DNA from: Escherichia phage vB_EcoS_GZMU_E2010
DNA: 44,255 bases
Reading direction: 5' to 3' (one strand)
Sequence record: PV845598.1
Shown here: one piece after another, positions 815 through 858 of the stretch
Position numbering within the stretch: position 1 is the first letter of the stretch
Layout: each line of letters opens with the position of its first letter
Made by a program: the position numbers and the translations under genes
The notes under the pieces: generated by a model
What the model saw: the letters and a program-made list of their open reading frames with translations, nothing else
What the model was told of the DNA's origin: nothing
The model's database searches: none

Positions 815-858
815 TTGCTTTTTGCTTGAAGTACCGCTATCTTAGGTACTTCAAGCAA
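815..858 (+). promoter_or_regulatory. candidate promoter with 14-bp perfect inverted-repeat operator
   Basis: TTGCTT (815-820), 17-bp spacer, TATCTT (838-843); arms TTGCTTGAAGTACC (822-835) and GGTACTTCAAGCAA (845-858) flank the -10; GAGGAG SD at 861-866. Confidence 0.45.

Follow-up and report, generated by a model that had tools for sequence, protein, structure and literature searches.

A probable repressor-binding site at the replication-operon promoter of a Kagunavirus phage

What is the function of a long, perfect inverted repeat that encloses the -10 hexamer of a promoter ahead of phage replication genes? The question is raised by Escherichia phage vB_EcoS_GZMU_E2010 (PV845598.1; the whole stretch of 44,255 nucleotides that was analysed is referred to here as the window). 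The phage belongs to Kagunavirus (Guernseyvirinae), with Escherichia phage ST20 as the nearest record; matches to the neighbourhood of the repeat were found in 225 phage records. The initial annotation had described two 14-nt arms around a TATCTT hexamer and had read them as an operator for one of two adjacent gene products. An inverted-repeat search returned exactly these arms at the same coordinates, 14 nt long, 100% complementary and 9 nt apart (Table 1), and found no longer perfect short-range inverted repeat in the 44-kb window. A perfect 14-bp repeat with a loop of up to 60 nt was seen in none of 60 shuffles, and the analytic chance expectation is 0.01. Based on comparison among related loci, we suspect that the repeat is probably an ordinary repressor-binding site at the promoter of the replication operon.

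Table 1. Features of the repeat, the promoter (P_rep) and the operon downstream, in window coordinates
Feature	Position	Strand	Remarks
-35 hexamer TTGCTT	815-820	+	17 bp before TATCTT; same spacing in other modules
Left arm TTGCTTGAAGTACC	822-835		Conserved core TTGAAGTACC at 826-835, about -24 to -15 of P_rep
Spacer, 9 bp, GCTATCTTA	836-844	+	Holds the -10 hexamer; dyad centre at 840
-10 hexamer TATCTT	838-843	+	Flanked by the repeat arms
Right arm GGTACTTCAAGCAA	845-858		Conserved core GGTACTTCAA at 845-854, about -5 to +5
Shine-Dalgarno GAGGAG	861-866	+	AGGAG invariant in 9/9 aligned sequences
47-aa CxxC...CxxC zinc-ribbon gene	874-1017	+	ATG at 874; first in the module; putative replication role
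149-aa gene	1010-1459	+	Translationally overlaps the zinc-ribbon gene; putative replication role
Helicase-primase gene	1519-3804	+	Downstream in the operon; phrog_3228 (E 1e-286), AAA_25

A 459-bp non-coding region, which separates a leftward gene pair (ending at 414) from the rightward operon, has the repeat at its right end, and the zinc-ribbon gene begins 15 bp past the repeat. We compared 42 loci around helicase-primase homologues plus contigs encoding homologues of both small proteins. In most relatives, homology to the window ends at about 813-828 and returns at about 1460, so that an exchangeable cassette begins with the repeat. At least five versions of this cassette are found in the interval from the conserved intergenic region to the helicase-primase gene (loci L002, L008, L010, L049 and L053 compared with the window). 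The type A cassette consists of the zinc-ribbon gene and the 149-aa gene, and among 50,697 phage records it was found only in ST20. Types B and C carry a gene for an HTH_17 protein followed by one for a 96-aa protein, and type D an HTH_17 gene followed by one for a 77-aa protein, to which no homology of the 149-aa protein was detected.

Two cassettes are natural recombinants, with one example of each class. In L049 an HTH_17 gene is combined with the 149-aa gene, and the promoter is a plain TTGCTT-N17-TATGCT that lacks the repeat. L053 has the zinc-ribbon gene (its product 83% identical), a largely different intergenic region, and a second gene with no detectable similarity to the 149-aa family, and it keeps the repeat. 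The repeat was present in 16 of 16 fetched loci with the zinc-ribbon gene, which amount to eight distinct close variants and the divergent L053. Types B, C and D lacked it, as did about 220 further Guernseyvirinae records. The helicase-primase is 96% identical in type B/C loci and occurs with all module types, so it does not covary with the repeat.

Type C loci (L014 at 3189-3270; also L010, L011 and L017) carry a perfect 10-bp inverted repeat of their own, GTAACTTTGT-N20-ACAAAGTTAC, within this promoter, with arms that flank the -35; its left arm is the conserved anchor found at 803-812 of the window. Type D has the conserved TATCTTAGTTACTTTG element as well, in reverse orientation and downstream of a TTGACA-N17-TAAGGT promoter.

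The promoter spacer and flanks differ among the five alternative modules though the hexamers and their spacing are kept. All five have TTGnnT-N17-TATnnT, which ends 28-32 nt ahead of the first ATG, and at the 17-bp spacing the -35 reads TTGCTT, TTGCCT, TTGCAT or TTGATT (types A, B, C and D; L049; L053). This conservation bears out the assignment of TATCTT as a -10 flanked by the arms, and the two hexamers in the window very probably form a sigma-70 promoter with its -10 at TATCTT. P_rep agrees with the consensus at 7 of 12 positions, with TTG, T-12, A-11 and T-7 present, and it falls below the threshold of a simple promoter scan. Placed from the -10 position only, the transcription start would be near 850, inside the right arm. 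Only one Kagunavirus transcriptome was found, that of K1B4; it sorts genes into coarse classes and reports no 5' ends. A literature search on Jerseyvirinae gave nothing relevant by title or abstract.

How much of the repeat is conserved? The 14-bp element is perfect in this phage, but in relatives with the same module the conserved element is 10 bp long: perfect complementarity in the close variants is confined to the inner TTGAAGTACC-N9-GGTACTTCAA, and a single G insertion at 855, specific to this phage, makes the outer 4 bp pair. Across the eight close variants, 0 of 20 core-arm columns vary as compared with 19 of 42 background columns (Fisher p=2e-4). In L053, 17 of 20 arm positions are identical to those of the window (left core 9/10, right core 8/10), as against 16 of the 42 other non-element columns (38%; p=8e-4). 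The L053 promoter reads TTGCAT-N17-TATAGT with arms CTGAAGTACC-N9-GGTACTACAC, and the position of the repeat relative to the -35, the -10 and the Shine-Dalgarno is preserved despite the diverged surroundings. The left arm lies within the spacer between -35 and -10, where promoter function alone places no constraint on it. The 9-bp spacer between the arms occurs as GCTATCTTA, ATTATCTTG, ATTATATTG, ATTATATTA and AGTATAGTG, always with TATnnT in the same place.

In the window, copies of the arm 10-mer or 14-mer with 2-3 mismatches occur at shuffle level only, a copy with one mismatch at 1437-1446 falls inside a conserved coding region and is no more than chance would give, and none of the direct-repeat families contains the arm sequence. 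A 14-base degenerate pattern returned random matches only in viral contigs. An intrinsic terminator was rejected, since on neither strand is the stem followed by a T run (CTGAGGAG on the plus strand, AAAAGCAA on the minus strand) and a terminator scan did not report it. A second perfect inverted repeat of the window, CCGCACCAGCGG-N6-CCGCTGGTGCGG, has 12-bp arms at 28742-28753 and 28760-28771. Between the 149-aa and helicase-primase genes there is a G+C-rich hairpin (1465-1491) that scores as a terminator on the minus strand only, opposite to the operon (11 pairs, then TTCTTTTATT).

Given this arrangement, the repeat may be the operator of P_rep, recognized by a protein encoded in the module and serving negative autoregulation, a reading to which we assign an even chance from the comparative evidence. 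The half-sites would lie at about -24 to -15 and -5 to +5 with the dyad centred on the -10 (the full 14-bp arms span -28 to -15 and -5 to +9). Occupation of the half-sites, whether by a symmetric dimer or by a small protein in two copies, would exclude RNA polymerase. The binder would most likely be encoded by the exchangeable module that starts at P_rep, and negative autoregulation of the transcript for the zinc-ribbon protein, the 149-aa protein and the helicase-primase would be expected because the binder is probably encoded on the transcript that it controls. The geometry also counts against an operator in one respect: with about 19 bp between their centres, the half-sites are spaced widely for a small dimer.

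The initial annotation had named the products of the two adjacent genes as candidate regulators, and the recombinant loci separate them. The zinc-ribbon protein is favoured over the 149-aa putative winged-helix protein by comparative linkage, because the repeat accompanies the zinc ribbon in L053 and is missing from L049, which has the 149-aa gene. In L049 the putative recognition region of the 149-aa protein is identical, yet there is no repeat. The first gene of every other cassette encodes a small HTH_17 DNA-binding protein, and the zinc ribbon thus has the place usual for a DNA binder. Pure linkage could also explain the co-inheritance of repeat and zinc-ribbon gene, which starts only 15 bp after the repeat. 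Two further proteins were considered as binders and found unlikely: phages without the repeat also have the XRE-type regulator (3822-4037), at 94-100% conservation, and the helicase-primase, at about 96%.

A second regulator had been proposed because the repeat differs from the GAATAG-type sites. The repeat is indeed unrelated to these sites, which are part of a conserved promoter family of their own, TTGCAC-N17-TACTAT; its four copies found in the window are at 440-468 (minus), 22478-22506 (plus), 31606-31634 (plus) and 43139-43167 (minus), with related sites at 4066-4085 and 4107-4127. An AATAG...CTATT palindrome is embedded in the spacer and -10 of these promoters, and the 'phage promoter' consensus published for a relative, fBC-Eco01, tgAATAGTa-ccTATTat-T, matches the family (PMC9825357). 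A second, module-specific regulator for the repeat is a reasonable suggestion, given that the repeat is unrelated to the GAATAG-type sites and that the XRE gene is conserved in phages that lack it. Two GAATAG-type copies flank divergent promoters beside the XRE-type gene, and it is plausible that the XRE-type protein binds the GAATAG-type sites.

The 47-aa protein matches the N-terminal zinc part of HNH/endonuclease VII proteins in PHROGs (phrog_2255 and phrog_1035, E 1e-5 to 3e-4), with Pfam matches below threshold. Its AF2 model has a mean pLDDT of 83, and the best full-length overlay is with the HNH enzyme PacI (3ldy; TM 0.73, rmsd 1.9 A), at Foldseek E-values that are not significant. The protein also shows homology to the N-terminal part of an HNH endonuclease of 140 aa, encoded at 1201-1623 of a high-GC metagenome contig (L176); the zinc ribbon with which that enzyme begins is 45% identical to residues 1-32 of the 47-aa protein. 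The homology suggests that the 47-aa protein may be an HNH zinc domain freed from its nuclease. Searches for distant relatives of the 47-aa and 149-aa proteins gave close homologues only, and because the metagenome scan added just the one HNH enzyme, there is no wider set of relatives for covariation. A more specific possibility is that the 47-aa protein, derived from the N-terminal zinc domain of HNH/endonuclease VII-type nucleases, is itself the sequence-specific repressor, two copies of which on TTGAAGTACC and GGTACTTCAA would shut off P_rep. We regard this as doubtful, and we know of no precedent for a zinc ribbon of 47 aa in such a role.

For the 149-aa protein, the designation as a winged-helix protein is a model prediction for the C-terminal half; the N-terminal half is not reliably modelled. 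Residues 81-130 of the AF2 model have a pLDDT of 83-90 and an H-H-H-E-E topology, and the N-terminal half is below 50. Foldseek aligns the C-terminal half with the winged helices of Fur, MecI, LexA and PerR at rmsd 2-3.6 A and weak E-values (0.04-0.15). The protein had no match in Pfam or PHROGs and no detectable similarity to Rep/initiator families.

Could the repeat act in RNA rather than in DNA? On transcripts that start upstream and read through P_rep, it would form a 5'-UTR stem-loop two bases before the Shine-Dalgarno, with possible roles in mRNA stabilisation, as a processing site, or in binding the zinc-ribbon protein in the manner of phage Mu Com. The hairpin does dominate the predicted fold of the window (MFE -30.5 kcal/mol, z=-4), a weak promoter-like match, TTCACA-N18-CATATT, lies upstream at 732-761, and the overlap between the zinc-ribbon gene and its downstream neighbour resembles that of com with mom. 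With one C bulged, pairing of the outer TTG/CAA is retained in most relatives, so that the outer complementarity outlasts the indel, and such bulge-tolerant pairing is easier to accommodate in a hairpin than in a rigid protein site. However, the conserved promoter would place the start in the right arm, and the main transcript could not then form the stem. No compensatory change was found in the stem, where 10 of 14 pairs never vary and no pair has changed on both sides; two arm changes in L053 both break pairs; and the stability of the fold is not conserved, with z-scores for the region of -3 to -4 in the window, -1.05 in ST20 and +0.66 in L053. It is therefore the sequence of the arms that is constrained, not their pairing. 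The stem, 14 bp here, shrinks to 10 bp in relatives and 6 bp in L053, which is short for RNase III, and an Rfam scan of positions 1-4500 at E up to 1 gave no match. Com-like translational control of the 149-aa gene was rejected, given that no inhibitory structure is predicted at its start. We consider an RNA element unlikely, whether for stabilisation, processing or zinc-ribbon binding. The conserved feature appears to be half-site sequence and spacing rather than pairing strength, which fits protein recognition of duplex DNA.

The remaining alternatives keep the repeat in DNA and differ in what, if anything, would bind it. An origin-adjacent site for the 149-aa protein as a putative initiator, possibly doubling as an autorepression site, would suit the place directly upstream of the helicase-primase operon, where leftward and rightward genes diverge and the cumulative GC skew has its minimum, and would suit the winged helix modelled in the C-terminal half. 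The turn in GC skew is explained equally well by transcription direction, though, and there are no iterons, the arm not being repeated beyond chance in the window. Together with the presence of the 149-aa gene in L049 without the repeat and the protein's lack of detectable Rep or initiator similarity, this makes a replication element quite improbable. A similarly low probability is given to a functionless quasi-palindrome, arisen by chance or mutation at a mosaic junction and retained through its linkage to the promoter. The lengthening from 10 to 14 bp by a single-base insertion and the module boundary at about 813-828 are in keeping with such an origin, and about 2.6 ten-bp perfect repeats are expected per window by chance. 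Against it, the arms are less variable than neighbouring non-coding bases in both close and divergent relatives, and their placement relative to the -35, -10 and Shine-Dalgarno is kept in the diverged L053. Least probable of all, in our estimate, is the binding of an E. coli regulator that would couple the replication genes to host physiology. A dyad over the -10 is generic to many host repressors, but sister phages of the same hosts with other modules lack the site, and the full core palindrome occurs in 0 of 185,579 species-representative bacterial and archaeal genomes. To our knowledge, it matches no E. coli operator consensus.

The proposed operator at P_rep can be compared with several known systems. 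In trpO, bound by TrpR, and in LexA SOS boxes, repressor operators are centred on the -10 hexamer. Here, too, a dyad covers the -10 and the predicted start of a sigma-70 promoter and steric exclusion of RNA polymerase would be expected. Unlike those operators, it consists of two 10-bp half-sites separated by a non-symmetric 9-bp spacer with the -10, shares no sequence similarity with them, and has only a candidate binder. In iteron plasmids such as pPS10, winged-helix dimers of RepA bind an inverted repeat in their own promoter. The likeness lies in a promoter inverted repeat ahead of an operon with a putative winged-helix protein and replication functions, and in the proposed autoregulation. 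In contrast to pPS10, there are no iterons with the half-site, the 149-aa protein has no Rep similarity, and without the zinc-ribbon gene the 149-aa gene has no such repeat.

The zinc-ribbon protein recalls Com of phage Mu, a small protein with a C4 zinc finger, which controls translation of the overlapping mom by binding to an RNA stem-loop. Both are very small, the protein here being of the CxxC...CxxC type, and its gene overlaps the next and has a strong stem-loop nearby. Here, however, the stem-loop is upstream of the zinc-ribbon gene itself, the start site would fall inside it, and the protein has no sequence match to Com (Pfam, PHROGs). Compared with the N-terminal zinc ribbon of HNH/endonuclease VII proteins, the domain is alike, but in these phages it is a stand-alone, conserved ORF of 47-48 aa with no nuclease domain.

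The non-coding region upstream of P_rep has features of its own. About 400 bp (415-815) are conserved across Kagunavirus and have no Rfam match; the region could be a leftward leader, a non-coding RNA or an origin. A hairpin at 528-547 (GGGTGGGC/GCCCACCC) is replaced at the same place in ST20 by a different hairpin (GGGCAGGC/GCCTGCCC), so that the structure is kept and the sequence changed. A second small hairpin with a T run is found at 737-764. The 7-mer TGAAGTA, which is contained in the arms, occurs also at 555-561 (plus) and 729-735 (minus), and 4 of its 10 copies in the window lie within 300 bp, an enrichment in the intergenic region. The copy at 729 is present in all type-A and in 2 of 11 type-B/C loci, and the copy at 555 is absent from ST20. 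The two copies are not module-specific and were not counted as operator sites. L053 has TACTTCAA about 330 bp ahead of its repeat.

From the perspective of gene regulation, the operator itself is a textbook arrangement, and only the reading of the zinc ribbon as a repressor would be new. If that reading is true, this 47-residue zinc ribbon would be a DNA-binding regulator of a new and very compact kind, a minimal phage repressor with a fold not known in that role, and it would functionally replace the HTH_17 protein of sister phages. Phages of the genus Kagunavirus are widely isolated with a view to treating infections by K1 and uropathogenic E. coli. If confirmed, the operator would be a control point of replication-gene expression in one lineage of this genus, and promoter, operator and regulator would be swapped as one cassette between near-identical phages.
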